In this document: positions 716 to 58,977 of the stretch, in pieces
Layout of the letters: each line of letters begins with the position of its first letter
How positions within the stretch are numbered: the stretch's first letter is position 1
DNA from: Chiloscyllium plagiosum
Taxonomy: Eukaryota
Length of the DNA stretch: 64,000 nucleotides
Assembly (NCBI RefSeq): GCF_004010195.1
Contig: NC_057718.1
Coordinates: 94,026,039-94,090,038 of the forward strand
Reading direction: 5' to 3'
Position numbers and translations under genes: made by a program
Notes under the pieces: model-generated
Told to the model about the DNA's origin: nothing
Database searches by the model: none
What the model saw: the letters and a program-made list of their open reading frames with translations, nothing else

Positions 716-1236
716 GTCAGAAGTCACATGACACCAGATTATAGTTCAATAGGTTTCTTTGAAATCACAAGCATTTGGAGCACTGCTCCTTTGTCAGTTG
801 ACGTCACTTCGCCTGATGGAGTAGTGTTCCGGAAACGTGTTATTTCAAATAAACCTTTAGGACAATAACCTGGGCGTCACGGTGGCACAGTGGTTAGCAC
901 TGCTATCTCACAGCGCCAGAGACCTGGGTTCAATTCCCGCCTCAGGCGACTGACTGTGTGGAGTTTGCATGTTCTCCCCGTGTCTGCGTGGGTTTCCTCC
1001 TGGTGCTCTGGTTTCCTCCCACATTCCAAAGATGTGCAGGTCAGGTGAATTGGCCATGCTAAATTGCCTGTAGTGTTAGGTAAGGGGTAAATGTAGGGGT
1101 GGGTTGCGCTTCGGCGGGTTGTTGTGGACTTGTTGGGCCAAAGGGCCTGTTTCCACACTGTAAGTAATCTAATCTAATCTGATGTCATGTGACTTCTGAC
1201 TTTGTCAATCCCAATCCAACACCAGCACCTCCACAC
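716..1236 (+). mobile_element. PLE-derived hammerhead fold-back element (family A-like), interrupted by an HE1 SINE
   Basis: Left arm GTCAGAAGTCACATGACACC... is inverted to the right arm ...GATGTCATGTGACTTCTGAC. Degenerate hammerhead at 812-840, tail CCAATCCAACACCAGCACCTCC, TSD CACTGTATACTAA 703-715 / CACTGTACACTAA 1237-1249. Confidence 0.75.
872..1180 (+). mobile_element. HE1-type tRNA-derived SINE
   Basis: A box TGGCACAGTGG, B box GGTTCAATTCC, CR1-like 3' end GGGCCTGTTTCCACACTGTA and (TAATC)n tail. Confidence 0.9.
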
Positions 1237-3916: not shown

Positions 3917-3954
3917 GGTTCCTGAAGAAGGGCCTGTGCCCGAAACGTCGAATC
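3917..3954 (+). ncRNA. Minimal type I hammerhead ribozyme motif
   Basis: GGTTC-CTGAAGA-A-GGGC(CTGT)GCCC-GAAACGTC-GAATC. Predicted cleavage after C3949. Confidence 0.75.
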
Positions 3955-4037
3955 TCCTGTTCCCTGGATGCTGCCTGACCTGTTCCAGCAATAAAGTTTC
4001 AACTTTGATCTCCAGCATCTGCAGACCTCACTTTCTC
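3921..4037 (+). mobile_element. Single-arm PLE-derived hammerhead mini-element (family B)
   Basis: Near-identical to the element at 28810-29030, with tail ...GCAGACCTCACTTTCTCC. TSD CTGGTGGTT 3912-3920 / 4038-4046. Confidence 0.85.
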
Positions 4038-5356: not shown

Positions 5357-5569
5357 CAAATAAAAACCGAAAGAGCTGCAAATCAGAAACAAAAACCAGA
5401 AATTGCTGGAAAAGCTCAGCAGGTCTGCAAGAGTTAACACTTTGGGCCCAGTGACTTTTTCTCAGTTCTGAAGGAGGGTCACCAGATCCGAAACATTAAC
5501 TCTGATTTCTCTTCACAGATGCTGCCAGACCTGCTGAGCTTTTCCAGCAAATTCTGTTTTTGCTGTGGT
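5357..5569 (-). mobile_element. PLE-derived hammerhead fold-back element (family C) inside a CR1 3' tail
   Basis: Arms CAGAAATTGCTGGAAAAGCTCAGCAGGTCTG / CAGACCTGCTGAGCTTTTCCAGCAAATTCTG. Degenerate hammerhead at 5464-5503. TSD TCATGGCTGATC 5345-5356 / TCACGGCTGATC 5570-5581. Confidence 0.75.
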
Positions 5570-15510: not shown

Positions 15511-16963
15511 TGTGGCTCTGTATCAACTGTTCTTTGATAGGGTTCCCATTCCATCAGTTAGGATGTCTTGCAAGATTAAAGTTAACATATAAATAAATTC
15601 ACAATATCATTATAAAGTTTCTTTCTAAGCCAAAATTGGTCCACCTGTTCGAGAGTTAAAGAGGATTTCAGCACAGAACCAGAACATTTGGCCCATTAAG
15701 TCATACTTTGACTCTATCTCTGATGAAACCTATGTAAAAGCACCTTGTGTATATTAAAGGTCAATGGATAATGTGTATCAGTCACATGGCTCTGATGCTT
15801 TGTTCTCATTTTCTTTTAATTACATCACATTATATGCTGAAAGCACAACGCAGGTGATTTCAACTGTATAGTGTTCATGTGCACCAAATTTACATCATGA
15901 CCCAAATTAACATTGGTCTGTGAATAAATACGTAACTGAAAATTGAATTAAATTGTTTAAAATGAAAATAATTCACAATAGATTGGTTCCGAATCAAAAG
16001 ATCTACATCTGGATTCGCGTTTTTGCTTTAAATGTAAATATAAAATAGACTTTATAATGAATTTAATATGGTGGTGATAAGGAGATTAATCTCCTTGATA
16101 ACAGACTGCAAATAAGTCTAATGCGCCCATGGTTCAAACAAGGGTTTCTGTTTATTGGGAACAGGCGAGAGATGAATGGCTTGTTAAACATTGCCAACAT
16201 ACTTGCTTGGTGCCATTCAACGGTCACAGCAAGTGGAAACAAGGAACTTGCGTTCTACACCCATTTGCTAATTCAGTCCAACTTTGTTTCTCTATCTTAT
16301 CTCTTCACCTTCTTTACCTCAGTGTGATTGCATACTTTTAATGCTCTTTGTCTCCGCTGAGTACCTCCAGCTCTGATCAGTGTGAAAATAAATGGACAAC
16401 TTGCCCATATGTATTTATGAGCTTTTATTGATTGATTGTTTCACTGCATTTTACTGGTTATAAAGTTATATTATCATGGACGTTTAACCAGGCGAACACT
16501 GTAAAAGACAAGAATTTCCATTCGAACATTAGTAAGCCTCCCGGTGGCAACTTGGGGTGGAAACAAGTTAATCATTCACCTCTGTTGGATTGTGAAGGCT
16601 TTCAGAACACTTGGCTGACATATGCTTTATCTTCATATGTTTGTCTTTATTGTAAATATAACATGAAAAAGGACAGGCCAAAAATTCCAAATTTTAAATG
16701 ACCTATTTGGTCTGGACTTGAATGGTTACCTCATCACTTAGACGCGATCAGCCCAATGCATTGGAACCCCACTCCAACACGATCCATGTATTGAGACTGT
16801 GTTTTAAGCTAGACCGTATTATTCATAGTTGGTGCCCATTAATGGTCCTGCAAGTGCAAGCGGCAATATTGTGTACCTATCCCCATTATTTCCTGTCCTT
16901 AAGTCTTCAAAATAAATGAATAAAACAGGCATTGTGTAAAACCAAAACTAGATAATTGAAGGC

Positions 16964-17095
16964 AAACTAAAACAAAGACCTGCAGATGGCGGAGATCTGA
17001 AACTAAAACAGAAATTGCTGGAGAAACACAACAGGTCTGGCAAGATCTGTGAGAAGAGAGTTAACATTTCAAGTCCAGTGACTCTTCGCCAGAAT
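16964..17095 (-). mobile_element. Single-arm PLE-hammerhead element (family C), decayed
   Basis: CTGCAGATGGCGGAGATCTGAAAC...GAGTTAACATTTC...TCTTCGCCAGAA matches the family C arm plus tail. Confidence 0.65.
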
Positions 17096-17349
17096 AACTA
17101 ATTGAAAAGCTATGGGTGGCTGTGATTGTTGGCTGTATTTGCAGAGTGAAGATTCTGTGATTCAAGACACATACTGAAGTCTGGGCCATTGCAGACTGTA
17201 TTATGGTAGGGCTCAGGCATACACACATTCTTGGTTGGCTTGCTTTTTTTGAAAGAGCATCATGGTGACCTACAAATACTGAGAGAGAAAGTATCTTTGC
17301 ATTTGATATCCTCACTTAATTGTCAATCTTTACATCACAATCTCGCCTC

Positions 17350-19716: not shown

Positions 19717-20542
19717 TGTTATGGACCAGATCAAATCCCCTCAAAATATATTAAGAAGATAGTCTCGACCCTACCATTTTCTCATTTAAAGGTAAGTTTA
19801 AGGCATTGTGCTACAGATGCATTTCAATTGGTCAAACAACCAGACTTGGAACAAAACATAGGTAAAAGTGAGGACTGCAGATGCTGGAAACCAGAGTTTA
19901 GATTAGAGTGGTGCTGGAAAAGGACAGCAGGTCAGGTAGCATCCAAGGAGCAGGAAATTCAACGTTCCAGATGAAGGGCTTGGATGCTGCCTGACCTGCT
20001 GTGCTTTTCCAGCACCACTCTAATTGGAACAAAACATACTTTATTCATGCACTATAATTAAAATACAGACAAAATAAAAATGGAGGAATTACCTAAACTG
20101 TAACTCTATTGAAATGTTTAACAAAATAAAAATATTAACTACTACTAATTAACTTTTCCACTATATTACCATTCCACAAGCACACCCTTGGCAAAGGCAA
20201 ATTCAGTAAAATAGAGTCTCTCGCATACAATTCTAGCAGCAGGAAAAGAACGCCAACTTTTCGTTGTAACAGAGAGAGGAATAAGAGCTTCCACATCCAA
20301 CTTCAAGACACCAGCAATTGCTACCTAAGGCTAAAAGTAAAAATAATTCTGATTCTGTGGGAGCATGACCCCATGCGTTCAGGCTGCTTCTATTATTCCA
20401 ACTTTTAAAAATAACCCAAGGGTCTCACAAGGTGTTTACTTTATTGGCTTTGGAGTGGACTGATCCACACCTCTGTCTCAAACGTTCATCATTAAAACAA
20501 AACAGGACAAAATACAATTCTTAAAGCCATAGTAATATCACA
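19717..20542 (-). mobile_element. Probable solo LTR containing a PLE insertion
   Basis: TGTTAT...ATCACA termini, flanks AGAT/GGAT, minus-strand AATAAA near 20040. Confidence 0.45.
19861..20023 (-). mobile_element. PLE-derived fold-back element (family B-related) with deleted centre
   Basis: Inverted arms ATTAGAGTGGTGCTGGAAAAG / CTTTTCCAGCACCACTCTAAT. Perfect 15-bp TSD TTGGAACAAAACATA 19846-19860 / 20024-20038. Confidence 0.85.
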
Positions 20543-23236: not shown

Positions 23237-23812
23237 TTAAAAAATCACACAACACCAGGTTATAGTCCAACAGGTTTATTTGAAAGCACTAGTTTTCGGA
23301 GCGCTGCTCCTTCATCATGTGGTTGTGGACCATAAGATCGTAAGACACAGAATTTATGACAAAAGTGTACAGTGTGATGGAACTGAAATTATATATTGAA
23401 AAAGACCTGGATTGTGTGATAAGTCTTTAAGAACCATGTTGGTTTCAGTTCTTTCATCTCAGAATGTTTTTTAAAGTTACATTCTCAGATGAACTTTAAC
23501 AATAGGTGCCATGTTGGTCTAGATAATGCATTGAAGGTGTGAGGTGCACTGTGTGAGACTGTCTGTGCCCAATGTTCAGACCGATTCTAATCTAAAAAAG
23601 GGAGTTCCAGAATCTTACCTGGCTTTATGCAGTTTATGAGCAAAATAAAATGTAATCCTGCAAGTACAAATTCACCCCACAAACTTATATGTGCGTGCGT
23701 GCATGTGGGTGGGTGTGTGTATGTGTGGGAGGGTATGAGTGTCTGTGAGAGAGTGTGTGTTTGTGTGAGTGTGACTGTAAAGGAGTATAAGTCTGTTGGC
23801 GAGTGTGTGTCT
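23237..23812 (-). mobile_element. Penelope-like element 3' region (family A), single arm
   Basis: Homologous to the 42844-43336 arm. Mutated hammerhead at 23287-23321, (GT)n-rich end, possible TSD TATAATGAG/TATAATTAG. Confidence 0.8.
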
Positions 23813-25820: not shown

Positions 25821-28809
25821 GGTCTTAGTTAATGGCATAATTGTTGATACTCTAAATCAGGAGGCTCTGAGACCAGTCATTGGATTTGATCAGATAGTAG
25901 TGAAGATGTTCTGTGTTGGCGTCAGTATGAAACATTAACCCAAAGTCATGTCTTGCTGTTCCACTGGTTCAGATGAACAGTAAAGGTCCCATGATATGAT
26001 GCTGCTTCATCAGGTGATGCCAGCAGTAACAAACAGGTGTGGTGCGAAATACAGCATTGACTCATTTATCAGCTAGCTTTCTTTAATTGGCACTCAATGT
26101 TTTCAATCCAATAGTTTATGGCATTTATTCAACAAGTACTCTCACACAGTGGCTGATGATTTTGAACGAGGGCAAATGTTTTTGATCTGAATTATTGAAG
26201 TTTTTGGGATCTTTAAATGCATGAAATGAGTGCCAAATTGCCCAAATGATAAAAGCCATTGCATTGCAAAGTAATCCCTTTTATTCCTTTTCAGATGTTC
26301 CTGAGAGAGATGACGAGACCTCTAGGCAAATCTTGCATTAATTGTCAGATATTGTTTGTGAAAGATAACATTTAAATTGGCTTGCTTTTTATGCGATGAG
26401 ACTGTGTGTATTGTGAGGTTTGTCAATAAGTTTTTTTTGACAGCATGTAACTAGTTGACAGAGTGTTTGCTGTAAATGGCCTAGTGATTGATCTTTATAT
26501 TTATAGACTAGATTTAGTCAAGAAAAGAAAACATTAACCACTTGAAATAAATGGGTCCGATGTGTGCCAATGGCTTGGAACTGTAGGCACTAAAAAATTG
26601 CATGGCATTGATAATTGCCACATACTTCAACAAACGTCAACTGCGCTAACACAAAATTTCCTCCACCAACAACAAATACAAGGTGAGAGCTATTGTAAAC
26701 TACATCTTTTTGAATAATCCAGCTTGTCATTACCTTTATATTCTTTCACTATAAATTGAGGGAAGACTCATATTGCGCAGTCTACATCCTAGTCTACTTT
26801 ATTGTAGTGAGATTACTTTGTTCAAGGTAGCCTCTGAGTCCAGAACCACTTTAAAGCTTTCAATTATGTTGTAAATAAACATATAACTTGAAGCTTATTG
26901 ATGTAAGGCATCTTTTACTGTGTGGATAAAAGGTTTGTTTTCTGTCACTAATTTGAGATTGGAACACTTATCTGTTGTTTGGTTATATCTGGAATATACT
27001 TGTTAAAACTAGACTGTCTGATGCAATTTTGAGCACTGTGACATTTATAGGCATCTTCTATCCTGCTTTCTCCCATTTAGCCATTCCACTGCATTCTGTG
27101 ACAGTTGGATTTATCTCCTTCAGATTAATTCTCCACTTAAGACTAAGTACAGCTGAGTTCAAGCAATTGTCAAGCTGTTGGTTGAATCCATTCTCTTCTC
27201 TCGTCCTGAAAGCTAGAATTGCACTTCTCGACAGATGCTCACATTCAAGATGGTGGCCCACAAAATAACAATCACAGAAACCTGACAATATTTCCACTCC
27301 TCTGACTTTGTAATATTCCTGCCAATTGCAACATCCTCGTGAATATTCTGGTGGATAGCAATGAATTCACCAAAAGCAAGCAGTGAGCCTGATCTTTTGA
27401 TAGTTTACATGGTTCACTTGCATTCCAACACTTTACTAAGCGATTAGATATATCCTGAAAATTTTTGAAATAGGGGATAAAATCTTCATTAAGTAGAATA
27501 TACATATACTCCACAACTTCACTGTTAATGGATAAGTCTTATGCTTACAACTGACATTGAAGGACATTTACAGCATGGAAGCCAAATTAACGCCAGGTCG
27601 GTGTAAGTAGAGGAACATATCGATTAAGCTGCTTCCTTCTGCTTACACTCTAAAGTGAATTCTACACTGTCCAAGGCTCCTTTGCAAGTAATGTATCACA
27701 CACCAGGTCTTATTTGCCATCATTCCTGAGTACACTAATCTACCCTGAATCAATGTTCTCCAATGCATGAAAGTCAACGTCATTTTCCTTTGTCTTACAT
27801 CGACTTACCTGTTAAGTTATCTCAGCTTCATGTCTTTCCTTTCATCATTCCTCCCCCTGACCTTTCAGTGCATCTTGATCCAGCTCCAAAGCTGGGCCAG
27901 AACAGGTGAGGATGACAGATTTTCTTTCCTGAAGGACATTAGTGCATTAGATGAGGTTTTCTCAAACAAATCAGCAGGTATCAACTGTATTTATCCTGCT
28001 AATACCACATTTCCAGACTAAAAGAGAAGGAACACAGACATAAATTGCTGGAGAAACTCAGCAGGCCTGGCAATATCCTGGAGAGAAAGTAGAATTTCTA
28101 CTCCATTGACTCTTCTTCACTCCAGTTCCACAGGATCAGAAAGCAGTATAGGGATACAGTATTGCTATTTAACAGAGCTGAAGCTTAATTGGAAATAAAG
28201 TGCATCATTTTCATGAAATAATGTTTAAAAGGTTCAAGATCTTAAAAACAAGAGATTTAAGACAACGTTTTGCTTTTTTCTAATCTTCTGGGTGTCATCG
28301 GCTGGGCCAGCATTTATTACCCATCCCTCATTTTATTTTGTTTATTCATGGGACATGGACATCACTGGCCAGACCATTTATTACTCCTTCCCTGACTGCC
28401 CAGTCAGCAGATAGGGCTAAACCACATTGTGTGGTTCTGGAGCCACATGTCAGTCAGACTAGGTAAGGATGAAGGATTTCCTTCCTTAAAGGACATTAGG
28501 ACAGATTGAGGTTTTCCCCAACAATCGGCAGTGGCTTTATTGTCAATCCCAGATTTTTATTGAATTCAAACTTCACCATCTGCCATGCTGAGATTTGAAC
28601 ATGGGCCCTCAGAGCATCACTTGGCCATAACCTCCCCACAGGAGGTGCCCTCGAGAAGGTGCTGGTGACCTGCCTTTGGAACCTCTACAGTCCACGTGCT
28701 GCAGGTAGACCCACAATGCCATGAATCTTGACTCAGTGACACTGGAGGAACAGAGATTATAGAGGTTTATAAAATCATGAGGGGCATGGATAGGGTAAAT
28801 AGACAAGGT

Positions 28810-29030
28810 GGAGAAAGTGAGGTCTGCAGATGCTGGAGATCAAAGTTGAAACTTTATTGCTGGAACAGCACAGCAGGTCAGGCAGCATCCAGGGAACAGG
28901 AGATTCGACGTTTCGGGCACAGGCCCTTCTTCAGGATTCCTGAAGAAGGGCCTGTGCCCGAAACGTCGAATCTCCTGTTCCCTGGATGCTGCCTGACCTG
29001 CTGTGCTGTTCCAGCAATAAAGTTTCAACC
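28810..29030 (-). mobile_element. PLE-derived perfect palindromic double-hammerhead element (family B)
   Basis: 92-bp perfect arms 28845-28936 / 28938-29029, 35-bp unpaired tail 28810-28844, TSD TAAATAGACAAGGT 28796-28809 / 29031-29044. Confidence 0.92.
28935..28972 (+). ncRNA. Minimal type I hammerhead ribozyme motif (mirror copy on the minus strand at 28902-28939)
   Basis: Stem I GATTC/GAATC, core CTGAAGA, extra A, stem II GGGC/GCCC, GAA-ACGT-C. GUC cleavage triplet ends at 28967. Confidence 0.8.
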
Positions 29031-36138: not shown

Positions 36139-37424
36139 TGTAGAAAAGGTTTTGGAAAGGATTATATAAGAGATAAGATTTATAATCATCTAGCAAGCAA
36201 CAATTTGATTTCAGATAGTCAACATGGTTTCGTCAAGGACAAGTCGTGTCTTACAAACCTCACTGAGGTTTTTTGAGAAGGTGACCAAGCATGTAGGGCA
36301 GTTGACGTGGTATACATGGACTTCAGTAAAGCCTTTGATAAGATTTCACATGGTAGGCTGTTGGAGAAAATGCAGAGGCATGGGATTGATGGTGATTTAG
36401 CAGTTTGGATTAGAAACTGGCTTTCTGAAAGAAGGCAGTGAGTGGTGGTTGATGGAAAATATTCAGCCTGGAGTCCGGTTACTAGTGGTGTGCCACAAGG
36501 ATCTGTTTTGGGACCAATGCTGTTTGTCATTTTTATAAATGACTTAGACGCAGGCATAGGTGGATGGATTAGTAAATTTGCAGATGACACTAAAGTCGGT
36601 GGAGTAATGCACAGCTTGAAAGAATGTTACAGGTTGCAGGAGGACTTGGATAAACTGCAGAATTTAACTAAGAGGGAAGAAAAACTGGAAGGCAGAGTAC
36701 TGGGTCAATGGAAAGATTCTTGGTAGTGTGGATGTGCAGAGGGATCTTGGAGTCCATGTACATAGATCCCTGAAAATTGCCACCCAGGTGGATAGTGCTG
36801 TTAAGAAGGCATACTGTGTGTTAGGTTTCATTGGCAGAGGGATTGAGTCCCGGAGCCACAATATCATGCTGCAACTATACAAAATGCTAGTGCGGCCGCA
36901 CTTCGAATATTGTGTGCAGTTCTGGTCGCCCCATTACAGGAAGGATGTGAAAGCATTGTAAAAGGTGCAGAGGAGACTTAGCAGGATGTTGCCTGGTCTG
37001 GAGGGAAGGTCTTATGAGGAAAGGTTGAGAGACTTGGGTCTGTTCTCATTGGAAAGAAGAAGGCTAAGAGGAGATTTGATAGAGACATACAAGATAATCA
37101 GAGGATTAGATAAGGTAGACAGTGAAAGTCTTTTTCCTAGGATGGTGACGTCAGCTTGTACGAGGGGCATAACTACAAATTGAGGGGTGATAGATTTAAG
37201 ACAGATGTCAGAGGCAGGTTCTTTACCCAGAGAGTGGTAAGGGCGTGGACTGCCCTACCTGCTTATGTAGTCAACTCAGCCACATTAGGGAGATTTAAAC
37301 AACCCTTGGATAAACACATGGAGGATGATGGGATAGTGTAGGGGGAGGAGCTGAGAATAGTCTACAGGTCGGCACAACATCGAGGGCTGAAGGGCCTGTT
37401 CTGCACTGTATTGTTCTATGTTCT
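36139..37424 (+). mobile_element. CR1 LINE with RT core, 5'-truncated
   Basis: QHGFVKDKSCLTNL, GVPQGSVLGP and SKFADD, with a (TTCTATG)n tail. TSD TCTAATCTA(C/T)CTCTGT 36123-36138 / 37422-37437. Confidence 0.92.
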
Positions 37425-38320
37425 AATCTATCTCTGTCTCTTTCACGGTACTTACCAGTCTATTCAATTCCTGAACAATTAGTCTTAATTGGAGTCACCC
37501 ATTGGTCTTTCTGTCCATTCACCTTCTTTTGAGTCTCACTCACTACATGTTTTCAAAGGCTTCATCCTCTTTCTTCAGAATCAATTGCTCACCTCTGTGT
37601 CGTGAAACACTCCACACTAGTGGCTGTATTATAGTCACAGAGTTGTAAGCGCAGGAACAAATCTTTTGGTCCAACTCATCCATGCTGATCAGATATTCTA
37701 CATCAATCTAGTTCCATTTACAAGCAGTTTAGAGGGATAGGGTCCCTATCCCTCTAAACTCTTCCTTTTCATGTAGCCAACCAGATGCTTTTTAAATGTT
37801 GTAATTGTACCAGCCTCCACCACATCCTTTGGATTAGTTTTCAGCTGAATGCTGATGTTTTTGCTGCTTGGGTCATACCTCTTGCTATAGCCTTTCTAAG
37901 TTAGATTTAACACTTGGATATAATTTTGGTGTTTATCATCTACTTAAGGTAGTTGAACTTATCCATTGACTTTTTTCTTGATGCTTCTAGTCTTGACTTT
38001 TATATTATCATCTTGCGGTGAAACGTTGGTCTTTGCCTCACTTATGTTCAGACCAGATGACCCAGTGCATTGGTTATTTTGGCTGGGTCATGAATAACCC
38101 TGTAGAAACCTTCAATCCAGTGCATCCGATTCCCACTCTAGATTCTGATCATTCTGGAAGATTCACACTCAACTTATACATCGTGTTCTTTAGAATAGCC
38201 ACTGCTTTTAAGGACCCTATTTTGTCACAGAGAAGCGCATTCCAAAATACTGAGCGGGATGACATTAGCAAAACATTAAGTGAGCAAAATTGTGGTTGAA
38301 GAGTTAATCTTTGAGGATAT

Positions 38321-38645: not shown

Positions 38646-38917
38646 ATAATATGATACATTGGAAGCGGGAAAAATATGGGGAATGTAGGAAGAAACCAAG
38701 GGGGAAGATTGCTTAGCCACTATTGATGGAATGGAAGGACACACAACCGGACAAGAGTAGGATGAATGGAGGTTCCTGGTTGTTTAAATGGTTAAAGGAG
38801 ATTGCAGATATCAAATGGATGAGATTCTTCTGAGAAAGGATTTATAACTGTGGATGTTAATGTTAAAATTGATGCACTGGATGGCTGAGGGTCAGTGAGC
38901 ACTGACAAAAACAAGTT

Positions 38918-39024
38918 ATAAACAAAAACAGAAATTGCTGGAAAATCTCAGCAGGTCTGGCACCACCTGTGGAGAGTAATCAGAGTTAACTTTTCGGGGT
39001 TGAGTGACCCTTCCTCAGAACTGA
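38918..39024 (-). mobile_element. Single-arm PLE-hammerhead element (family C)
   Basis: Minus strand reads AGTT-CTGAGGA-A-GGGTCACTCAACCCC-GAAAAGTT-AACT. Confidence 0.75.
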
Positions 39025-39049
39025 TTAGAAGCATACTGGGCTCAGTATG

Positions 39050-39256
39050 AAGTTAAAAATCACACAACATCAGGTTAAAGTCCAACAGGTTTAATTGGAA
39101 GCACACGAACTTTCGGAGCATTGCTCCTTCATCAGGTGGTAGTGGAGTGCTCAATCCTAACCCACAGAATTTATAGCAAAAATTTACAGTGTGATGTAAC
39201 TGAAATTATACATTTAAAAATTGATTGTCTGTTAAGCCTTTCATCTGTTAGAATAT
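39050..39256 (-). mobile_element. Single-arm PLE element (family A) with hammerhead at 39104-39138
   Basis: Minus strand reads CAC-CTGATGA-A-GGAGC(AAT)GCTCC-GAAAGTTC-GTG. TSD GCTCAGTATG 39040-39049 / 39257-39266. Confidence 0.85.
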
Positions 39257-40464
39257 GCTCAGTATGGGGTAGAACAGGGCCAGTGGAATTATGAGCAAAT
39301 TGAAGCTTATATGGAGTTAACTTGAGAGGTGGATGAGGAACACTGGGGAGGCTGAGTCTTGTTGGTGAAGAGAGCCACTTTGAATCCATTCTGCCCTCTG
39401 GAGTTCGTTTCTTCTGCTAACATGTCCTTTGTGGATGGATCACAAGACCACATCACTTACAGACTTCAATATGTTAATGCTTCTTCACATGATAGTGCTT
39501 TGCATTCCATTCAATGCACTTTAAATATCTCACATTCTATCAGGGCCCAAACAATGCAGTTTAATGTTTGCTTTGGTTAAGATAGCTATTTAGGACCTAA
39601 CCCTTGAAAACCGATTTACCTTGGATAACAGATAAGGTTGTTGAACTCCCCTGCACTGACACCCTTACATGGGATAATGTAGCTTTGCAAATTGCTATTT
39701 GTGTTTATGTAATGCTTTTAGCCATGAAGCTAAAACAAATTTGACTCGTGTACTACCTGGAGGCATCATCAAAAGGCTCCGACAATCCGAAGAAAACCTC
39801 CATCAAATAAATGTGTTGTCTTTATTATTATCACAAATACAGCCCACCATTTTGGAAATAGGCCCCTTCAAACGCCAATGATACAAGCAACGAGTTAATT
39901 GACTTTAACATCGGGGCAATGCAGACGAAACTTTGACAGAAGGAGCTCTTCACTCTTCTTTAAGGAGCTCCAGGAGGTCTTTAAACGTTGACCTGAATCA
40001 GACCTCAGTTTACTATCTCATCTGAAGGACAGCATCACCAACTGTCTCACTAAGAAAGGATCAGCTTAAGCTGCGTTGTAAAATATTAATGGCTTGAACC
40101 TAAGGCCTTCTGGCTCAGACACAAAAGTACTAAATTGTGCTAAACTGATGGATTAGACAAGTATAAATTTGGCCCTGCTGTGACTGCCTGCTGCTCTCCC
40201 TCTGGGATAATGTGCTGTGACAGCATGAGCATACTATATTGAAACAGCATCCTGGTTTACAACTCTCCTGTTTATATTTTCAACAACTTCATCTTTTACA
40301 TGATCATGAGAGAGTAGGACCTACCCCATTTTAACTCTGTTTCTCTCTGGGAGTTTCTTGTTTTCTTTGCTGTGACTGTTTTGTTTTTTTTCCTGAACGG
40401 ATGTTTTCTCTCTCTTTCTGTTGAGCCTGTTCTGTTGTATACCTTCCTTTTTATGGCTTGTTTT

Positions 40465-41265
40465 GAATTTGATTTGATTTGTTTTACTATTGTCACATGT
40501 ACCCAGGTACAGTGAAAACTTTCATTTTGCGTGCAGTGCAAACAGATAGTAACATTCAAAGTGCATTGGAGTAATAGAACAGAGTGAGGAATACAATGTT
40601 AGGGCTGCAGAGAAGATGCACAGACAGTGACATCAACAACACATTATAATTTGAGAGGTCAATTCAGAAGTCTAATAACAGCGAGGAAGAAGATGTTCTT
40701 GAGCCTGTTGGTACGTATGTTTAGATGTGTCTTCAGCCCAATGAAAGAGGGTGGAAGAAATTATAATCGCATTGGGAGGGGTCTTTGATGATGTTGACTG
40801 CCTTCCAAAGGCAGTAAGAACTATAGATGGAGTCAATGGATGGAACGTTGGCTTGCGTCATGGACTGGGCTGTGTTCACAACTCTCTGTAAGCTCTTCCT
40901 GTCCTGGGCAGAGCAGTTTCTATACTGAACCCGGATGTATTTGAATAGAATGCTTTCTATAGTACATTTATTAAAACTGATAGGAGTCTTTACAGATATG
41001 CCAAATTTCCTTAGCCTCCTGAGGAAGTAGAGGCATTGATGTGCTTTCATGACCATCACATCAATTTGGGTAGACCAGGAGAGATTGTTGGTGATCATCA
41101 CTCCCAGGAACTCCTCACTCTCGATCATCTCCACCTTAGCATCATTGCTGTAGACAGCAGTGTGCACTGCACCTTGCTTCCTGAAGTCAATGGCTAATTC
41201 TTTCATTTTGCTCATGTTAAGGGAGAGATTCTTTATAACACACCATCAAACACACTATCTCTTTC
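40465..41265 (-). mobile_element. Rex1/Babar-like LINE 3' part
   Basis: ORF 40733-41215 (KELAIDFRK...LYFLRRLRKFG) with an (AAATC)n tail. Confidence 0.82.
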
Positions 41266-41329
41266 CTGTATTCTGTCTCATCCACGTGAAGTGCACAAGA
41301 ATCATGATCAGTCCAAGACTTGGTCTACC

Positions 41330-41662
41330 ATTTTCAACGCTGACTGGTCAGTTATTCTTATTCTGTGAAGACTCCTGGGCGCATTCTGCTGGAAGAGTGG
41401 TGCTGGTGCCAAATGCAGTTCCATTTTAAGATGTACAAGAACTTGTGTTTTTTTTTGCTTTTTTTTTGGTGTTGCTTTGCACAGTGTTAGGATTTGTTTG
41501 TATTATAGGGTAGGTTAGTAATTAGTAGACAGTAGTTGTATTGTAATTTGTGTTTTTTTTTCTTTTTATTATTCTGATATTTGTTATTGATTGTACTTTT
41601 CAATAATTTTATATGTTTGTAAAGTTAAAAGATTTGCTAATAAATATGTTTACAAAAAAAAA
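41330..41662 (+). mobile_element. Probable L1/Tx1-type 3' end
   Basis: T/G-rich 3' UTR, AATAAA near 41639 followed by poly(A). Confidence 0.4.
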
Positions 41663-41794
41663 CATTTCAAAACAATACCAGTCATTTCCATGTCTTACTG
41701 GTATTTCCTTTGATTTCTGTATAATTTACAAATGTGTTCAAATGTTGACTATTTAGTTAAAAAAAAGACTGTTTGATATCTTTGAAATATCCTT

Positions 41795-42068
41795 CATGGG
41801 ATCATACAGTGCAGAAACGGGCCATTTGGCCCATCAAGTCCACACAACCCCTGTGCAGAGCATCCCACACAGACCCACCCCATCCTTGCATTCTAGCGCG
41901 CACATCCCTGGACACTATGGGCATGTAGCACGGCCAATCCACCTGAGCCGCACAACTTGGACTGTGGGAGGAAAGTAGAGCACGGTCACAGGGAGAGTGT
42001 GCAAACACCACACTGACAGTCGCCAAAGGTTGGAATTGAACCTGGGTCCCTGGCACTGTGAGGCATTG
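41795..42068 (-). mobile_element. HE1-related SINE
   Basis: Reverse complement of the B box GGTTCAATTCC and the SINE body. Confidence 0.75.
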
Positions 42069-42843
42069 AGTCTGACCTGGACAGAACTGGGCCACGAGGA
42101 AGAAAAAGACATTTGGTTCCCCATTTGTCTTGATTTAACTAACTTTGGTATTGAGGCTTGTATCACAGGCAATAAAATTTGCCCAAGTGAAGGAAAGAAA
42201 GGTATCAGGTGCTCGATCACGACACAATCGTGTCAGGTGAAGAGTACATCTGTGTGAATATAGGTTCTGACTGGATTTGGATTTCAATATGCTTTAATGC
42301 TCAACTGGTTTGTTTAGATACATTAGCTAACATCCAATTTCAGCAGGTAATTAGGAAGGCAAATGGAATGTTGACTTTTATTTCAAAGGGAATAGAGTAT
42401 AAGAATAGGAGGTTTTGTTAAAACTACGGAAGGCACTAGTCAGACCACAGCTCGATGACTGTGAACAATTTAGTGACCCTGACTTAAGGTAAAAATATAT
42501 TGGTACTGGAGGCAGTTCACAGAAGGTTCACTATGTTGATACCAGGTATGGAGGGACTGTCTTAAGAAGAGAAGTTGAGTAAATTGGACCTGTACTCATT
42601 CGAGTACAGAAAATTGAGAAGTGACCTTACTGAAGGATACAAGATATTAAGTGGGCTTGACAGAGTCAATGCAGGGATGTTGTTTCCCCTTGTGGGAGAA
42701 TCTAGAACCACAGGGAATAATCTCGGAAAGAGGGGTCAGACATTTAAGACAGAGATGAGGAAGAATTTCTTCTGTCAGAGGGGAGTGATGCTGTGGAGAT
42801 CCTTACCACAGAGGGCTGCTGAGGCTGGTTCATTACAGAAAGT

Positions 42844-43942
42844 AAAAAAAAATCACACAACACCTGGTTAAAGTCCAACAGGATTAATTGGAAGCACTAG
42901 CTTTCGGAGCACCGCTCCTTCATCAGGTGGTTGTGGAGGACACAATTGTAAGGCACAGAATTTATAGCAAAAGTTTACAGTGTGATGTAACTGAAATTAT
43001 ACATTTCATCTGTTCAAATACCATGATAGTTTCATTTCTTTCATGTGTAAATCACAAAACCTTTTTTTAAAAAGTTGCATTCTCAGGTTAACTGTAACAA
43101 TGGGTGTTAGTTAGACAATATGTTGAAGGTGTTAGCCCTCTGTGTTCTTTGTTTGTGCCATGATGTTTAGATTGATTCTAATCTAGAAAGTGAGTTTTAT
43201 GTGAATTCATGCAGTTTTTGAGCAAAGTACAATGTAACTCTGCAAGTACAAATTCACCCCACAAACATATATGTATATGTGTGAATGTGGGTCTTTGTGT
43301 GTGTGTGTGTGTAGGAGTGTCTGTGTGTGTGTAGTGCAGACTTAAGACACTCTACATTCACTACACACACATATACACTCTCTCTCACACTCACAACCCT
43401 CCAACCCAGACACAAAGACCCACATGCACACATATACATATATGTTTGTGGGGTGAATTTGTACTTGCAGAGTTACATTATACTTTGCTCAAAAGCTACA
43501 TGAATTCATGTAAAACTGTTATCTCACTTTTTAGATTAGAATCAATCTAAACATCATGGTACAGACAGAGAACACAGGGGGTTAACACCTTCAACATATT
43601 GTCTAGCTATCACCAATTGTTACAGTTAACTTGAGAATGCAACTTTTTTTTAAAAAAGTTTTGTGATTTACACATGAAAGAAGTGAAACTATCATGGTAT
43701 TCGAACAGATGAAAGACTCAACAGACAATCAAGGTATTTTTCAATGTATAATTTCAGTTACATCACACTGTAAACTTTTGCTATAAATTCTGTGCCTTAC
43801 AATTGTGTCCTCCACAACCACCTGATGAAGGAGCGGTGCTCCGAAAGCTAGTGCTTCCAATTAAACCTGTTGGACTATAACCTGGTGTTGTGTGATTTTT
43901 AACTTTCGTACACCCCAGTCCAACACCAGCATCTCCAAATCA
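42844..43942 (+). mobile_element. 1.1-kb Penelope-like fold-back (family A) with a hammerhead in each arm
   Basis: Arms ~42844-43336 / 43360-43906, 36-nt tail 43907-43942, TSD TCATTACAGAAAGT 42830-42843 / 43943-43956. Confidence 0.9.
43816..43856 (+). ncRNA. Minimal type I hammerhead ribozyme motif (mirror copy on the minus strand at 42895-42929)
   Basis: CAC-CTGATGA-A-GGAGC(GGT)GCTCC-GAA-AGCT-A-GTG. CUA triplet ends at 43850. Confidence 0.8.
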
Positions 43943-43956
43943 TCATTACAGAAAGT

Positions 43957-44335
43957 TATGAACACAGCCCAGACCATCACAGTTGCTGCAGAAAGGCTGC
44001 CAACATCATCAAAGAACCCTCCCACTCCAGTAATACTTTCTTCCAGCCTCTCCCATCAGGCAGAAGATACGGAAGCTTGAATACACGGACCAACATTTTC
44101 AAGAACAGCTTCTTCTCTGCTGTTATTAAACTGCTGAATGGACCTCTCTAATTTCAATTTAATATTGACCTTGCTTTTGTGCATCTCCTGTGCAGCTGTA
44201 ACCATGTATGCCTCACTCTGTCTAAGCACCCTTTGATCTGTTTGTCCTTGTATGTTATTAACAGTCTGTACTGCTTACAAAACAAAACTTTTTACTGCAC
44301 TTAGGTACATGTGACAGCAATAAATCAAATCAAAC
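43957..44335 (+). mobile_element. Rex1/Babar-like LINE 3' end
   Basis: LQKVMNTAQTIT matches the 40733-41215 peptide. CAATAAATCAAATCAAA tail. Confidence 0.78.
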
Positions 44336-44839
44336 TAAGTATATTCAAGGTGGAGATAGACAGACTTTTAATCAGAAGGAAGTCAAGGGTTCTGGGGAAA
44401 AAGCAGAAAAGTAGGATTGGCAATTATCAGATCAGTGATTATCTCACTAAATGACGGAGCAGACCTAATGGGCTAAATGGCTACTTCTGCTCTGATGTCC
44501 TTTGATTTTATAGCAACCCAGGCATGATGAATTGATACCAGAGCAAAGTGGAGCTCACCAACAAGGGTGGCTAGATGAGGAAGAATCTTTTCTCCCAGAG
44601 GGTCATTGGCACTTGCAATTCTCTTTACCAAAGAGCACCTGGAGGTTGGGTCATTGAATGTATTCAAGGCTGAGTTCAACAGATATTTAATTGACAGGGG
44701 AATCAAAAGTGATGTGGGTCATAGAGGAGTTTGGAGATAAGGTGACAATTCATTTAGCTGTGATCCTAATGAATGATGGAACAGGGATAAAGAAGCAATG
44801 GACTACATTTTAAAGTGGTTCTCATATTCAGGAAAAAGG

Positions 44840-45243
44840 AAAAATTGCACTTCTATAGCACCTTTACAAACAGCAGCTTTATAATAATGAAGTCCTTTGG
44901 ACATGCAGTCACCGTCGTATGCAGCAGCTAATTTCTGGAGAGCATGGTCTTACAAGCCATAATGTTTGATGATCGAGCAATGAATATTAGCCAGGGCACC
45001 AGAGATGACTCCCTTGCCTTTCTTCAGAATTATACAACAAAATCAATTATGTGCACTTTAGAGAACAGACAGGACCTACATTCAACCTTCTGTCCAAAAA
45101 GCAGCATCGCTGACAGTGTCGCACTCCTTCAATATTGCCCTGGAACATCAGCCTAGATCTTTCTGTTTGAATCTCTGGAATGAGGCTTGAACCCACCAGC
45201 ACTCTGACTCAGCAGCAAGACTGTTACTGAGTGACAGTGGACA
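44840..45243 (-). mobile_element. DeuSINE (SacSINE1-like) relic
   Basis: tRNA-like head (minus-strand GGGTTCAAGCC), Deu-like core and L2-type tail. Confidence 0.6.
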
Positions 45244-47047
45244 CAATGCAGAGGTGGCATGGTGAACACAGCGGTAAGCATGACACACTTCCAATCGTAC
45301 GTTCTGAGTTTTTTTATAGAAAGAAAAAACAGCTCTCCTTACATAATAGGTTCATGGACTGGCTGTGGAAAAGTATCCTTGTGACTGAATTTCTGTGCAG
45401 CAGCAACAGCAGTGGAACGTTTACGCTACAGCTATGTTGATTGGATTCCGAGGTATTTATCATTGCCTAAAACTGCTGCCCGAAACAACATGACATGTCG
45501 ACGCAAGACCTGCATTTTGAACTGACATACTGAAAAGCGTCTGAGCCACATGTTTATAAAGAACATAGATTCCACTTCCATCACTCATTCGGACATTCAA
45601 ATGTTGCTCGTCACCTTGACATTTCAGCGGGAACAATGAGCACACTAACCTTTTTGTTTAAGGGCACTTTGTCTGCAATGAACTTGTGCAAATAAATATC
45701 AGGGCGATGGCGGTCCAGGTACACTTGACCTTGGAGAGTGTGTGACCTTTCGCGAGAGATTTGTTGGAAAAGATTTACAAAAAGATTTAAGGCATGGTTT
45801 ATTAATTGCTTTAAAGGAAATTTGGCATATTAATTTGTCAGCATTGAGATTTTTTTCCCGTTTCCTCATTAACAACGAATTGATGAAACTCTCTTGACGA
45901 ACAAAATACTTTGCACATATGGTACTGGCAAACCTTCATTCCGTATTATGACTGTGAATGGCATGGCATCTAATGCAGAGACTCAGCTGGTCAGTGAAGC
46001 TATTGATGTACTGTATATACTGTGTAAGCCAGCAGATTTCTTGAAAGAGAAAAAGGCTGTTTGGAGTTACAACAAAAAAAGTAGATAGAAATTAGTTTAT
46101 ACAAGTCGAGCCAAACAATTTAGTGCTGTGAGAATGTTGAGCAAGCTTGTGACTTTAGTATCATTGTGAGGGGGCAAGTTGTGCCAGTTGAGCTAAGTGA
46201 ATTGTTCCTCTGCATGTTCATTTACACTGAAATAAAATAGCTTAATGATTCACACCAGGCTCTTATCCTGACAAGCATTTACTCAGTCTGCTTTTGAGGA
46301 AACACAAATGAGCAATATAATTATTTGGCTCAAGTTACAAGAGGATACACAATTGTACAAGTTGAGATAGGCCGTTGTGAATCCATTGCCATAAAAGTAA
46401 GACACTTGGACCTCTTGATCCTACTGAAGTTATCAAGAGCAAATACAAATTTGCTACTCAAAGTTCAATGCACTTTTTCACCTATTTTCCAATCACGCGT
46501 TGAAAATGATGCACACAATTATTCACTTTGCTAAACTGTATAATACTCCTTAATGTCAACCTCAGACGTCACCTTGATAGGCATTCGTTCAATAATTTTG
46601 GGATAAGGATTTGATATGAATCATTAAGATGCTTCACCTTACCTCTCCATTTCTCTGAAGCTTTTTCCCTGTATCCCGTCAGGTCCAAGGCCTTGGTACT
46701 CCCTAAAGTCTATTCCCAGACCTGGAATGAAAATCAAAGCTCACCAATGGAATGCTGCCCTGCCAGACATCTCAGCTGGAAGTAGAAGATCCCAAGGCAT
46801 CAATTTGAAGAAGACCAGCCTGTGTCCCAACCAATATCCATCTCTCAAACAATATCACAGACATGGATTTTTAAACATTTCCCCCACTGTATTTAGATGT
46901 CACTGGCAAGACTAGTGCTTGTTACCCATTCTCAATTGCCCTTGAATTGAGAGGCTTGCCCAGGCATTGTTTATTTACCTACAGTGACTGGGCAACCATT
47001 GCATAGAATGTGGGGGGTCAGCTCTTAGTTGAGTAGTGAGAAACACA

Positions 47048-47382
47048 GAATGATAGAATGCCTGCAGTCTGTGAAGGAGGCCATTTGACCCATGGACTCC
47101 ACCTCAGTCCTCTGAAGAGCATCACACCCAGACCCACCTATCCCTATAATCCTGCATTTTCCATGGCTAATCCAACTAGCCTGTAGATCCCTGGACACTA
47201 TGGACAATTTTAGCATGGCCAATCCACCTAACCTGTACATCTTTAGATTGTGAGAGGAAACTCATACAGACACGAGGAGAACATGCAAACTCCACACAGA
47301 CAGTTGCCAGAGGCTAGAATCAAACCTGGGTCCCTAGCACTGTGAGGTAGCAGGGCTAACCACTGAGCCATCGTGCCACCCG
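47048..47382 (-). mobile_element. HE1-related SINE
   Basis: Ends ...CCACTGAGCCATCGTGCCACCC. Confidence 0.85.
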
Positions 47383-47648
47383 AACTGTGGGATTGTAGGG
47401 GTGAGCTCTGGATTGGGTTTGAAGGTGGCAGGATGGTCACCTGACCCATTTACACACAAATCCTGGCATGTAATATCCAGGTAGTGAACTAAAATCTGGA
47501 TAAACATCCCAAAAAACTTCTTCCAATGTGTCTTATAAGCCCACATCAACACATGATGTCAACAGCAAATTTCATTGAAAGCTGCGCATTAGGGCTGTTG
47601 TAATGCAATGGTAGTATCCCAGCCTCTATGCCAGGCAACCCAAGTTCA

Positions 47649-47788
47649 GAGTTCTGAGGAACGGTCACTCGACCTGAAATGTTAACTCTGATTTCTCTTC
47701 ACAGGTGCTGCCAGACCCGCTGAACTTGCTCAGCAATTTCTGTTTTCATTTCCAATATACAGCATCCGTAGTTCAGTCAGTTTCTATT
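47649..47788 (+). mobile_element. Single-arm PLE-hammerhead element (family C) inserted in the B box of a short tRNA SINE (47592-47860)
   Basis: GAGTT-CTGAGGA-A-CGGTC(ACTC)GACCT-GAAATGTT-AACTC. TSD CAACC(C/G)AAGTTCA 47636-47648 / 47789-47801. Confidence 0.8.
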
Positions 47789-47967
47789 CAACCGAAGTTC
47801 AAACCTCACCTACTCCAAAAGTGTGTCACAGCATTTCTGAATAGGTTGAATAGAAAAACATCTGAAAGAATATCTGAAACCTGAGCTTTCAGTTTAAATC
47901 TTCAGTAATGAACCTGTTTACTATTCAGCTTGTTTCTATTTGAAGATGTCGCTAAATGGCATCGGGC

Positions 47968-48090
47968 GGGGTGTTGTTGTGGTGCAGTGGTCGTGTCCCT
48001 ATCTCTGAAATAGGAGGCCAAGGTTCAAGTCCCACTGGCTGCAGAGGTATATCATAACATCTCTGAGCAGGTTGATGAGAAAAATATAAG
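47968..48090 (+). mobile_element. Short tRNA-derived SINE
   Basis: TGGTGCAGTGG A box, GGTTCAAGTCC B box. Same family as 47592-47860. Confidence 0.6.
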
Positions 48091-48876
48091 TGGAGTTAGC
48101 CAAAAACATGGTGAGCAGTTTCATTTAAGATCAATGGCAAGTAATGTAAATGTTAATAAGTCCCTTAACAATCATCCAATTTGCTATTCCCAATGCATTC
48201 CTTTATCAAACAATGTCTCATGCCAACTGTGGGCTAAATTGCAGTTGGAGTTCTAGAGAAAATGAAGAATTGCAAATGCTGGACATCTGAAACAAAACTT
48301 CGCCTCCACTTCCGTGAATATTTGCAGCCGTTCTATGTTTCACCTTTCTGTTTCCAATAGCACGTTGTTTTTGAGGTATTCCCTCCTTCACCATTTCTTC
48401 TCATTTTTTCCCTGGTCTGTCATGCCTAGACATATTCTAAACTAATGTTCATTTTCCACCCTTGTAAAATTTGCCATCAAGTCTGTTTTCATTGCTTGTA
48501 ACTGGTTGATTTGATATTTCACCTTTATGGTTTCCACATGTTGATCTACATTAGTTTTGCCCATCTGTACACAGTTTGTTCATATTCTCTCTGCTCACTT
48601 CCTTCTAACTGGGTCTACCTGCTTCCTCATTTCCCTATTAATTCATTTTGTCAGTATAGTAGCTTCCTTCCTGCCTCAGAGCCCCCTTACCTTATTGAAG
48701 AGAATCAACATTCTTCTGCCAGTACTAATACCAATGACATTAAAGTGAATATCATGTTCTCAAGGCTGTGCCTTTAGATGCATCTTCCAACACACACCAG
48801 AATGGTCTGCCATATTCTACCCTTTGGAAACCTTAATGCCATTCAAAACTTTGTTGTCTGCCTCTTAAGTCCCATT

Positions 48877-49116
48877 GCTGAAAATGTGTTGCTGGAAAAG
48901 CGCAGCAGGTCAGGCAGCATCCAGGGAACAGGAGAATCGACGTTTCGGGCATAAGTCCTTCTTCAGGAATGAGGAAAGTGTGCCCTGATTCCTGAAGAAG
49001 GGCTTATGCCCGAAACGTCGATTCTCCTGTTCCCTGGATGCTGCCTGACCTGCTGCGCTTTTCCAGCAACACATTTTCAGCTCTGACCTCCAGCATCTGC
49101 AGACCTCACTTTCTCC
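48877..49116 (+). mobile_element. PLE-derived double-hammerhead fold-back element (family B)
   Basis: 94-bp arms 48877-48970 / 48988-49081 (1 mismatch), 17-bp spacer, 35-bp tail, TSD (CC)TCTTAAGTCCCATT 48861-48876 / 49115-49130. Confidence 0.92.
48987..49024 (+). ncRNA. Minimal type I hammerhead ribozyme motif
   Basis: GATTC-CTGAAGA-A-GGGC(TTAT)GCCC-GAAACGTC-GATTC. Confidence 0.75.
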
Positions 49117-55160: not shown

Positions 55161-55381
55161 CTGAAGACAACGAGTGCTGGAGATCCCAGAAGATCAGGCA
55201 GCATTCGTGCAGGGAGAGCAAGCTAACGTTTCAAGACTGGATGATTCTTCATCAGAGTCATCTAGACTCGAAATGTTAGCTTGCTCTTTCTTCATGGATG
55301 CGGTCTGACTGCTGTGATCTCCAGCACTTGTTGTTTTCAGAATAGATTCCAGCTCCTACATAGTAATTTGCTCCTACATAG
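55161..55381 (+). mobile_element. PLE-derived hammerhead fold-back element (family D)
   Basis: Arms CTGAAGACAACGAGTGCTGGAGATC / GATCTCCAGCACTTGTTGTTTTCAG. Minus-strand CTGATGA-A...GAAACGTT-AGC, stem II GAGTC/GACTC, TSD TAAAGAAGG 55152-55160 / 55382-55390. Confidence 0.8.
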
Positions 55382-57537: not shown

Positions 57538-57850
57538 AGTCATGGAGTCATAGGGTCATGCAGCACGGAAACAGACCCTTCGGTCCAACCAGTTGTACCT
57601 GACCAAAAACCCAGACAATACTAGTCCTACCTGCCTGCTCCTGGCCAATAGCCCTCCAAACCTTTCCTATCCATGTACTTATCCAAATGTCTTTTAAACG
57701 TTAAAATCACACAACAGCAGGTTATAGTCTAACAGGTTTAATTGGAAGCACTAGCTTTTGGAGCACTGCTCCTTCATTTTAAACGCTGTAATTGTACCCA
57801 CATGCACCACTTCCTCAGGAAGTTCATTCCATACACAAACCACCCTCTGT
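57538..57850 (-). mobile_element. CR1 3' tail
   Basis: AGTCATAGGGTCATGCAGCACGGAAACAGACCC...TCATTCCATAC. Confidence 0.82.
57701..57776 (-). mobile_element. 76-bp single-arm PLE (family A) ending inside the hammerhead core
   Basis: TTAAAATCACACAAC...GCTCCTTCA. TSD TTTTAAACG 57692-57700 / 57777-57785. Confidence 0.85.
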
Positions 57851-58604
57851 CTCAAATATTGAAATCTAAATTAAATCAACAAATTGACATGGAAGCATAA
57901 ACAATGATACTGTCGATGGCAGTTTGCAGTTTGAACTCAGTTCAGTTACTTCAACTGGATGTTGGACTAATTGTAAATAAATAAGGAAAAATATGCATTT
58001 CTGTGAGCAAATTTGCTAATGCATTGATACTCAAGTGCTAGGATCATTTAATTAAATATGATTTTGAATCAAGAGTGTTTTATTCTTTTGTATAATATCA
58101 GCTTAACAAATGAATTTTGAGTGAACGCCGTCGAGTTTGAAAATTCCTCTGTGGATTTGTTCCTGGATAGTAGGCCACAAACAAACAGGACTTTGCTTCA
58201 GAATTCATTCACAGTATCCATGAGAAATCATTGAAGATCTGAATGGTAACAACACATTTTAAAGAATTTTTCACTTCAATTCTGCAATTCTGACTCCACT
58301 TTTCTAGCAGGACTTACATGAATGAGGAAGGCCTGTAGTGTAGGAAACCACCGAGGTTTGAAATAAGAAGTTCAGGTGCAGGGCTTGGAGGAGGTATGTA
58401 GTTTCTTCACCATGAAAGGAACAAAGGGAACAAACTCCAGGGGATCAGTTAACAACCTGTTTCCAATGACATAGGCACATGAATGGTCAGCATGGAAGAC
58501 GCTAAAAGTGACAGAATGGTTTGATCTCAATCTCCCCTGATATCCACACATGAAAGGGCTCCGAGATGATCCTCTGTATGGAGTGGGAACATCATTTGAC
58601 TTGA

Positions 58605-58733
58605 AATAAAAACAAACATGTCTGGAAATTCTCAGCCGGTCAGGCAGCTTCTGCAGAGGGAAACTGATCTAGCGATTCAGGTCAAGGTAACCTATTTCAG
58701 TTTCCCAGCATCTGCAGTATTTTGCTTTTGTTT
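58605..58733 (+). mobile_element. Decayed PLE fold-back (inverted arm plus tail, sense arm largely deleted)
   Basis: CTGGAAATTCTCAGCCGGTCAGGCAGC...CCAGCATCTGCAGTATTTTGCTTTTG. Confidence 0.55.
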
Positions 58734-58977
58734 GCCTCATTTACAATATCAAGATCAATTGCATCACTTACAAAGCAACCACCACAATGGGTATTCTGGA
58801 AAGGATGTACTGAATGGTTTATTAAACGTGTATGTACGCTGCTCCAGTAGTCTTCAGTTTGATTGGGACAAAAAAAATTCACATGCAGCTGACATGTTCC
58901 CCCAATCTATTGCTGCAGATGTTTGTCCTTACATGTTTCAGTCCAGATGTGGTTCCACTCCTTTGCAGGGAGTGCTC

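Follow-up and report, generated by a model that had tools for sequence, protein, structure and literature searches.

Two alternative 3' ends, one of each per fold-back, in short repeats of Chiloscyllium plagiosum that are likely Penelope-like element insertion products

The window analysed here is a 64,000-nt stretch of Chiloscyllium plagiosum DNA (contig NC_057718.1, positions 94,026,039 to 94,090,038), which a self-comparison characterized as repeat-rich eukaryotic DNA. We searched it by BLAST and with sequence profiles for the copies of a short repeat listed in a preliminary description. The copies are present as described but are not of a single kind: they fall into three sequence families, A, B and C, which that list had mixed. 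When the strand carrying a hammerhead motif is taken as the RNA sense, every 3' end points outward to the flanking DNA. Two alternative 3' ends are found, 33-42 nt apart, and an optional tail lies between them. The units consist mostly of arms of 80-560 nt without coding sequence, and their copy number is very high.

Seven complete fold-backs lie in the window, and each of them has one tailed and one tail-less outward end. Those of family A are found at 716..1236 (tail on the right, target-site duplication (TSD) of 13 nt with one mismatch, right arm interrupted by another repeat) and at 42844..43942, a long unit with its tail on the right and a 14-nt TSD. Family B is represented at 19861..20023 (left tail, 15-nt TSD), 28810..29030 (left tail, 14-nt TSD, arms identical at 92/92 positions) and 48877..49114 (right tail, 16-nt TSD, arms identical at 96/98 positions), and family C at 5357..5569 (left tail, 12-nt TSD with one mismatch, 7 nt at the right end without explanation) and 55161..55381 (right tail, 9-nt TSD). 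The tail of the last unit includes a short internal tandem duplication (seen in 55341-55395). The unmatched extension of the tailed arm measures 36, 33, 42, 35, 42, 33 and 41 nt in the fold-backs starting at 716, 5357, 19861, 28810, 42844, 48877 and 55161, while the opposite arm reaches 0-7 nt past symmetry. The offset between the two ends that had been proposed is thus recovered, with a measured range of 33-42 nt replacing the earlier value of about 35 nt. The proposal that a fold-back combines one of each end holds for all seven complete units (p = 0.008 under independent choice for each arm), n = 7 fold-backs in one window being the basis of this pairing rule. The two-ended pattern is real.

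Single arms end at one or the other of the same two points. Alignment verified three tailed arms: 3921..4037 (family B, + strand, exact TSD at 3912-3920 / 4038-4046), 16961..17098 (family C, − strand, 8-nt TSD at 16953-16960 / 17099-17106; previously given as 16964-17095) and 47649..47788 (family C, + strand, 13-nt TSD with one mismatch). It also verified four tail-less arms, all on the − strand: 23237..23812 (family A, long), 38918..39025 (family C), 39050..39256 (family A, 5'-truncated), whose end matches position 43905 of the tailed arm at 42844..43942, and 57701..57777 (family A, within another repeat). A fifth tail-less arm, an old family C copy at 28031..28118 (− strand), was absent from the preliminary list. 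The 40 nt past each of the four tail-less ends on that list showed no likeness to the family tail when compared with 2000 random stretches of the window (p 0.055-0.84). The interpretation of 38918 as a tailed copy with its tail deleted was rejected, its flank being no better than random (p 0.40). One further unit, of family C, combines an inverted tail-less arm with a tail that has almost no second arm (58602..58736), and family C-type tail-side fragments lie on the − strand at about 9290-9355, where the fragment is cut off by an inserted repeat, and 48257-48297. The 3921 arm is identical to the arms of the 28810-29030 fold-back at 83/83 positions except for an 8-nt gap, so that the same young subfamily yielded a tailed single arm and a fold-back. 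Near this arm, 3396-3546 and 4183-4333 form a 151-nt inverted duplication with 100% identity, the second copy of which adjoins one end of the repeat hosting the 3921 arm; it is either a local templated copy or an assembly artefact. Elsewhere in the window, a 389-nt direct duplication (17807-18195 / 18994-19382, 99.2%) is adjoined by an 87% inverted duplication (18259-18400 / 19397-19532), in sequence that is otherwise unique.

TSDs were sought by an ungapped search, in which 2 of 380 random position pairs scored at least 8. At this threshold a clear TSD flanks 12 of 16 units, and those of the other 4 are weak or absent. All seven complete fold-backs (TSD length 9-16 nt) and the three tailed single arms have one, as do two of the five tail-less arms, 39050 (39040..39049 / 39257-39266 on the + strand, 10/10 identical) and 57701 (57692-57700 / 57777-57785, 9/9 identical). 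The insertion target of the 39050 arm (39023-39049) holds, at about 39032-39049, an inverted repeat of 7 bp with 4 nt in its loop; the 5' end of the neighbouring family C arm, 38918..39025, is ~15 nt away from this target. At 23237 the duplication is 9 nt long with one mismatch and is not significant (p about 0.08); no TSD was found at 38918 or 28031 by the ungapped search with its random-position null. Thus, of the three tail-less arms previously credited with adjacent TSDs, 39050 and 57701 do have them and 23237 is marginal. The perfect TSDs on both sides of 39050 and 57701 indicate that the inner site is functional when no tailed arm accompanies it, and they speak against later deletion, suggested earlier, as the source of these two copies. 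That all tail-less single arms are fold-backs which subsequently lost their tailed arm appears highly improbable, since in 39050 and 57701 a whole arm would have to be deleted exactly up to an intact TSD, and since the tail-less arm of the fold-backs would be left without explanation. The copies without a detected TSD (38918 and 28031) and the marginal one (23237) are nevertheless compatible with arm loss, as is the unit at 58602..58736, whose junction lies within 8 nt assignable to either arm, as a microhomology deletion would leave it. The later deletion proposed for this unit (at 58605-58733) is possible on this ground; the ungapped search found no TSD around it, and by eye a gapped match of 8/9 can be drawn.

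The structure of the units and their hammerhead motifs make it likely that the copies are insertion products of Penelope-like elements (PLEs). Units of endonuclease-positive PLEs are described as a pseudo-LTR, an adjacent inverted 5'-truncated copy, a one-sided tail and a TSD (PMC8557442, PMC3846280). Among the hallmarks of PLEs, the optional tail of 30-40 nt is found here at 33-42 nt in 7/7 fold-backs, the head-to-head inverted 5'-truncated neighbour is present, the TSD surrounds the whole unit in the 12 of 16 cases with a score of at least 8, and all three families have a candidate minimal type I hammerhead in the terminal repeat. Reverse transcription starting at two sites, which is suggested here by the end positions, has been shown for PAc only. 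The copies differ from the published units in their arms without coding sequence, in TSDs of up to 16 nt and in their very high copy number. No PLE coding sequence (telomerase-like reverse transcriptase (RT) plus GIY-YIG) was found adjoining any copy in a Pfam search of 30 of the 85 frames of at least 90 aa, the copies being truncated well short of where the ORF would lie. GIY-YIG had 0 matches in these 30 frames, and the only RVT_1 match in them, at 13119-13643, does not adjoin these repeats. This RT fragment (− strand, E 8.6e-22) sits in a repeat that is also present at 36300-37425; together with a weak ALKBH8_N match at 40736-41245 (− strand), it is probably a LINE remnant. A MITE origin of the copies was rejected on account of ends that are asymmetric by 33-42 nt, lengths of 163-1099 nt and TSDs of 9-16 nt.

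The closest experimental system is PAc, the Poseidon PLE of the green anole, for which both target strands are cut and extended in vitro, RT starts at two internal sites bounding an optional 30-40 nt tail, and a protein dimer is predicted (Frangieh et al. 2024, PMC11167929). PAc resembles the copies described here in that its tail lies downstream of a minimal hammerhead, its genomic ends fall at both sites, and little or no homology between primer and template is needed (PMC11167929). Microhomology priming at the inner site was discarded as a requirement for our copies, with 6 nt of microhomology at 42844 and 0-2 nt at the other tail-less ends. Unlike in PAc, the ORF is not linked to the repeats, and the tails span 33-42 nt across three families. 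Inverted copies with one end of each kind are observed here; such copies, and a paired use of the two sites, lie outside the PAc account, as far as its available text goes (PMC11167929). The preliminary idea of two alternative priming points, each nicked strand priming its own cDNA, agrees with our data and with this in vitro work. The two ends themselves are not new, the PLE tail and two start sites having already been published, and neither is two-site, two-strand priming (PMC11167929). The pattern is thus real but mostly ordinary.

Core motifs of a minimal type I hammerhead, together with stem II, were identified in families A, B and C by motif scanning and folding. The predicted core lies at 39111..39135 (− strand) in the 39050 arm, where stem II folds, and at 43822..43851 (+ strand) in the tailed family A arm. 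With the minimal hammerheads of metazoan PLEs these motifs share CUGANGA and an extra base before stem II, as well as the G-C first pair, GAAA, the 4-nt palindrome and a short stem I (PMC4209133). Opposite-strand hammerhead pairs 100-700 bp apart were described by Cervera and De la Pena (2014, PMC4209133); the ends of our copies, by comparison, do not fall at the cleavage site of their candidate hammerheads. Rfam gave no match at the gathering score and no hammerhead by E-value in 38800-49300, the E-value matches being miRNA models on hairpins and other sub-threshold matches. Within the family A hammerhead, an ATG reaches a stop after 8 codons. In families A and B, folding further predicted that core and tail are joined by a stem of 9 bp, which differs in sequence between the two families and has weak folding support (z = -1.75); in family A it pairs 43867-43875 with 43917-43925. 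The loop of such a stem would contain the inner site, an arrangement also reported for PAc. No consistent core-tail stem was obtained by folding the decayed copies of family C.

To locate the end points of family A in further copies, the tailed arm (43450-43990) was used as a bait at 80% likeness against contigs of two organisms and RNA reads. In organism A (run X1), 78,344 contigs aligned, 13,848 of them partly, and in organism B (run X13), 87,199 contigs aligned, 16,067 of them partly. Among the loose-end positions listed (18 of 1,474), run X1 has 619 ends at 43903, 646 at 43905, 1,990 at 43906 and 889 at 43943, and run X13 has 722 at 43903, 800 at 43904, 2,191 at 43906 and 971 at 43943. Two clusters 37-40 nt apart are thus common to both species. 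They delimit an inner, tail-less end point at 43903..43906 (+ strand), ragged over 4 nt, and a tail at 43907..43942 (+ strand); the inner point and the end of the tail would correspond to two start sites of RT. The bait has an extra base at 43907, so that contigs ending at 43906 look tail-like in the consensus and are not countable as tail-less: this largest class contains both tail-less copies and tailed ones whose alignment breaks at a 1-nt indel. The sharpness of the outer cluster is partly an artefact, 43943 being the border between the tail of the bait and its TSD; in the family at large the tail may be longer by a few bases. Many 5' ends and fold-back pivots gather at 43819-43820, just upstream of the hammerhead core, with 255 loose 5' ends at 43819 in run X1 (again among 18 of 1,474 positions). 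The 5' ends of 3921, 47649, 38918, 16961 and 58602 also lie just upstream of the core, off the cleavage site. A pattern scan of viral_contigs for further copies returned 0 matches, and the 14 pattern loci obtained in metagenome_contigs were dismissed as chance, their likeness to the window being confined to about 30 nt around the pattern.

Both end points were also apparent in the RNA reads of one sample (X21, 5,504 aligned), in which depth goes down to 47% across the inner point in both read orientations and, beyond the outer point, is under 2% of that in the tail. A second RNA read set (X22) had 0 reads aligned to the bait. In the same sample, 771 and 1,031 reads end in long A runs at 43877-43880 (+ strand), 12-15 nt after a site that is AATAAA in about half of the family copies (variant at 43861). 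Polyadenylation thus takes place upstream of both putative start sites, and such RNAs are therefore not usable as templates; the reads may come from a few host genes borrowing the poly(A) signal of the repeat. The earlier assumption that one cDNA starts at the RNA end is doubtful, since these polyadenylated reads stop upstream of both sites and since both sites are internal in the lizard element (PMC11167929). Non-LTR retrozymes, which are also non-coding, hammerhead-bearing and PLE-derived, form head-to-tail tandem arrays (bioRxiv 10.64898/2026.07.22.740005). Assignment of our copies to this class was rejected, as no head-to-tail tandem units occur among the copies in the window. A tandem joint from 43943 to 43819 was present in 2 + 2 contigs, and none of the loose-end positions listed (18 of 1,474) falls at the ribozyme cleavage site.

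Whether the two arms of a fold-back derive from one template was addressed by pairwise comparison. For five of the seven fold-backs, the best full-length match of each arm, alone or in a tie, is the opposite arm: identities are 98% in 42844 (outer 156 nt), 86% in 716, 98% in 48877 and 82% in 55161, while the arms of 28810 are 100% identical and tied with the single arm 3921. The arms of 19861 are 96% identical and share a diagnostic end, a shorter overlap to another locus reaching 97%, and those of 5357-5569 are 86% identical to each other and 87-91% identical to 38918. None of the 7 fold-backs pairs arms of clearly different subfamilies, which had been put forward as a sign of two templates. 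In 42844-43942, allele comparison covered 33 of the 40 positions listed, out of 165 family-variable sites; the 7 left out are not at arm differences, and 3 of the 33 fall in a left-arm deletion. The arms agree at 23 of the remaining 30 sites and share minority alleles at 43562 (4-6%), 43657, 43795 and 43837. At 6 of the 30 the right arm alone leaves a majority of 86-100%, and 43610 is a family polymorphism that differs between the arms; 13 of the 20 arm differences lie outside the positions listed. These alleles fit one subfamily followed by decay. A 132-nt identical run stands out amid 21 differences in 451 nt (p = 0.0125); it starts near the 30-nt left-arm deletion, and elsewhere the arms differ by ~5%. 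It possibly reflects later homogenisation, gene conversion or a template switch, and later conversion may thus mask arm differences.

According to the preliminary description, two RNAs paired through a hammerhead dimer would each template one arm. The motifs do have the palindromic positions of dimer-type minimal hammerheads (PMC4209133), many 5' ends and pivots lie beside the core at 43819-43820, the arms of 5357-5569 are no closer to each other than to 38918, and the two arms of 42844-43942 have different letters at the family-variable site 43610, 13 of their 20 differences falling outside the positions listed. We nonetheless consider a bridge of this kind very unlikely: arms of one fold-back are of the same subfamily, with no clear exception among the seven, and a symmetric dimer does not predict one of each end. 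Naiad PLEs, which are without canonical hammerheads, show inverted copies and tails (PMC8557442), and some pivots (43820-43862; 7 and 3 contigs) start an arm downstream of the hammerhead; both observations weaken the hammerhead as a bridge. Catalytic hammerhead mutants also insert in vitro (PMC11167929), an experiment that does not address pairing. Two RNAs from one source locus, as a more general possibility, are compatible with identical arms.

These observations lead us to favour, with a probability of about 0.6, the interpretation that the repeats are 5'-truncated insertions of Penelope-like retrotransposons, that their two end points are two RT start sites, and that a fold-back arises from priming by both nicked target strands, one per site, on a single RNA-protein complex. 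A protein dimer would sit on one RNA at the predicted stem between core and tail, and each nicked strand would prime at one of the two sites. The inner-site cDNA would be made, and the outer-site cDNA would then displace it while copying the same RNA. The RT of PLEs is not known to have an RNase H domain. The 3' ends of the two cDNAs would finally join head-to-head, and priming by one strand alone would leave a single arm, tailed or tail-less. Each site is present once per RNA and could not serve both strands simultaneously; this would account for the rule of one of each end. In PAc, start sites did not differ in bulk between top and bottom strands (PMC11167929), which counts against this interpretation, and strict pairing is proposed here from the end positions. 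A literature search covering mostly papers outside subscription found no proposal of a paired use of two sites in the formation of fold-backs.

A related process is known from L1, in which priming by the second nicked strand takes place at an internal point of the RNA and leaves an inverted segment inside one TSD. The internal priming site of L1 is variable and its two cDNAs barely overlap, whereas the inner site is fixed here and both arms usually copy the same sequence. The unit at 58602-58736, an inverted core next to a bare tail, has the L1 twin-priming layout and fits the outcome expected of non-overlapping twin priming; microhomology deletion fits equally.

The main rival of priming on a single complex is a snap-back, in which the cDNA primed at the tail end folds at its 3' end and copies itself, is then cut or joined to the other target strand, and acquires its tail-less end at a stop or cut site ~35 nt short of the start. 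This accounts without extra assumptions for arms of the same subfamily, identical in places (92/92, 96/98), and for one of each end, so that it explains the pairing equally well; junction palindromes have led to a proposal of self-priming (PMC3846280), and endonuclease resolution has been put forward as the origin of the tail (PMC8557442). It fails mainly on 39050 and 57701, as it does not yield tail-less single arms with perfect TSDs, and initiation at the inner site has been demonstrated in vitro (PMC11167929). Moreover, the tail-less arm of 58602-58736 and of 19861-20023 holds sequence that is missing from the tailed arm. Hairpin tips, it should be said, delete easily. On balance, we regard the snap-back as unlikely, though clearly less so than a hammerhead bridge.

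The contigs contain a further recurrent arrangement. A joint between 43906 and 43943 on opposite strands was found in 26 contigs of run X1 and 28 of run X13, the most among the 15 of 201 joints listed, with mean depths of 4.8 and 13.7, about the single-locus level. From a joint table that gives neither strand order nor intervening letters, it is probably a tail end joined tail-to-tail to an inverted core end, a geometry compatible with many loci and again one of each; the 64-kb window holds no example. Self-priming on the sense template would give tail-to-tail repeats (Arkhipova et al., PMC3846280). Inside-out resolution, re-insertion at a tail end, a tandem or circle junction, or a locally inverted tail also fit this joint. 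We tentatively suggest, as a possibility rather than an expectation, that PLEs integrate by obligately paired twin priming, in which a protein dimer on one RNA would direct one nicked strand to the inner site and its partner to the end of the tail, the same RNA being copied twice, with the tail-to-tail joint between exactly these sites as a by-product. Such a by-product would form by self-priming of the tail's 3' end at the inner site, or by an inside-out resolution of the two cDNAs about the sequence that would otherwise become the TSD.

Both PMC8557442 and PMC11167929 treat the formation of inverted repeats by PLEs as an open question, the tail and inversion having been attributed to endonuclease resolution or to self-priming (Craig et al. 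2021, PMC8557442; Arkhipova et al. 2013, PMC3846280). With thousands of dated products of each family in this genome, counts of paired ends and of tail-to-tail joints could by themselves discriminate between the competing models, and the in vitro system of PAc could do so directly. If true, paired twin priming would tie the tail, the inverted repeat and the TSD of these elements to one mechanism.
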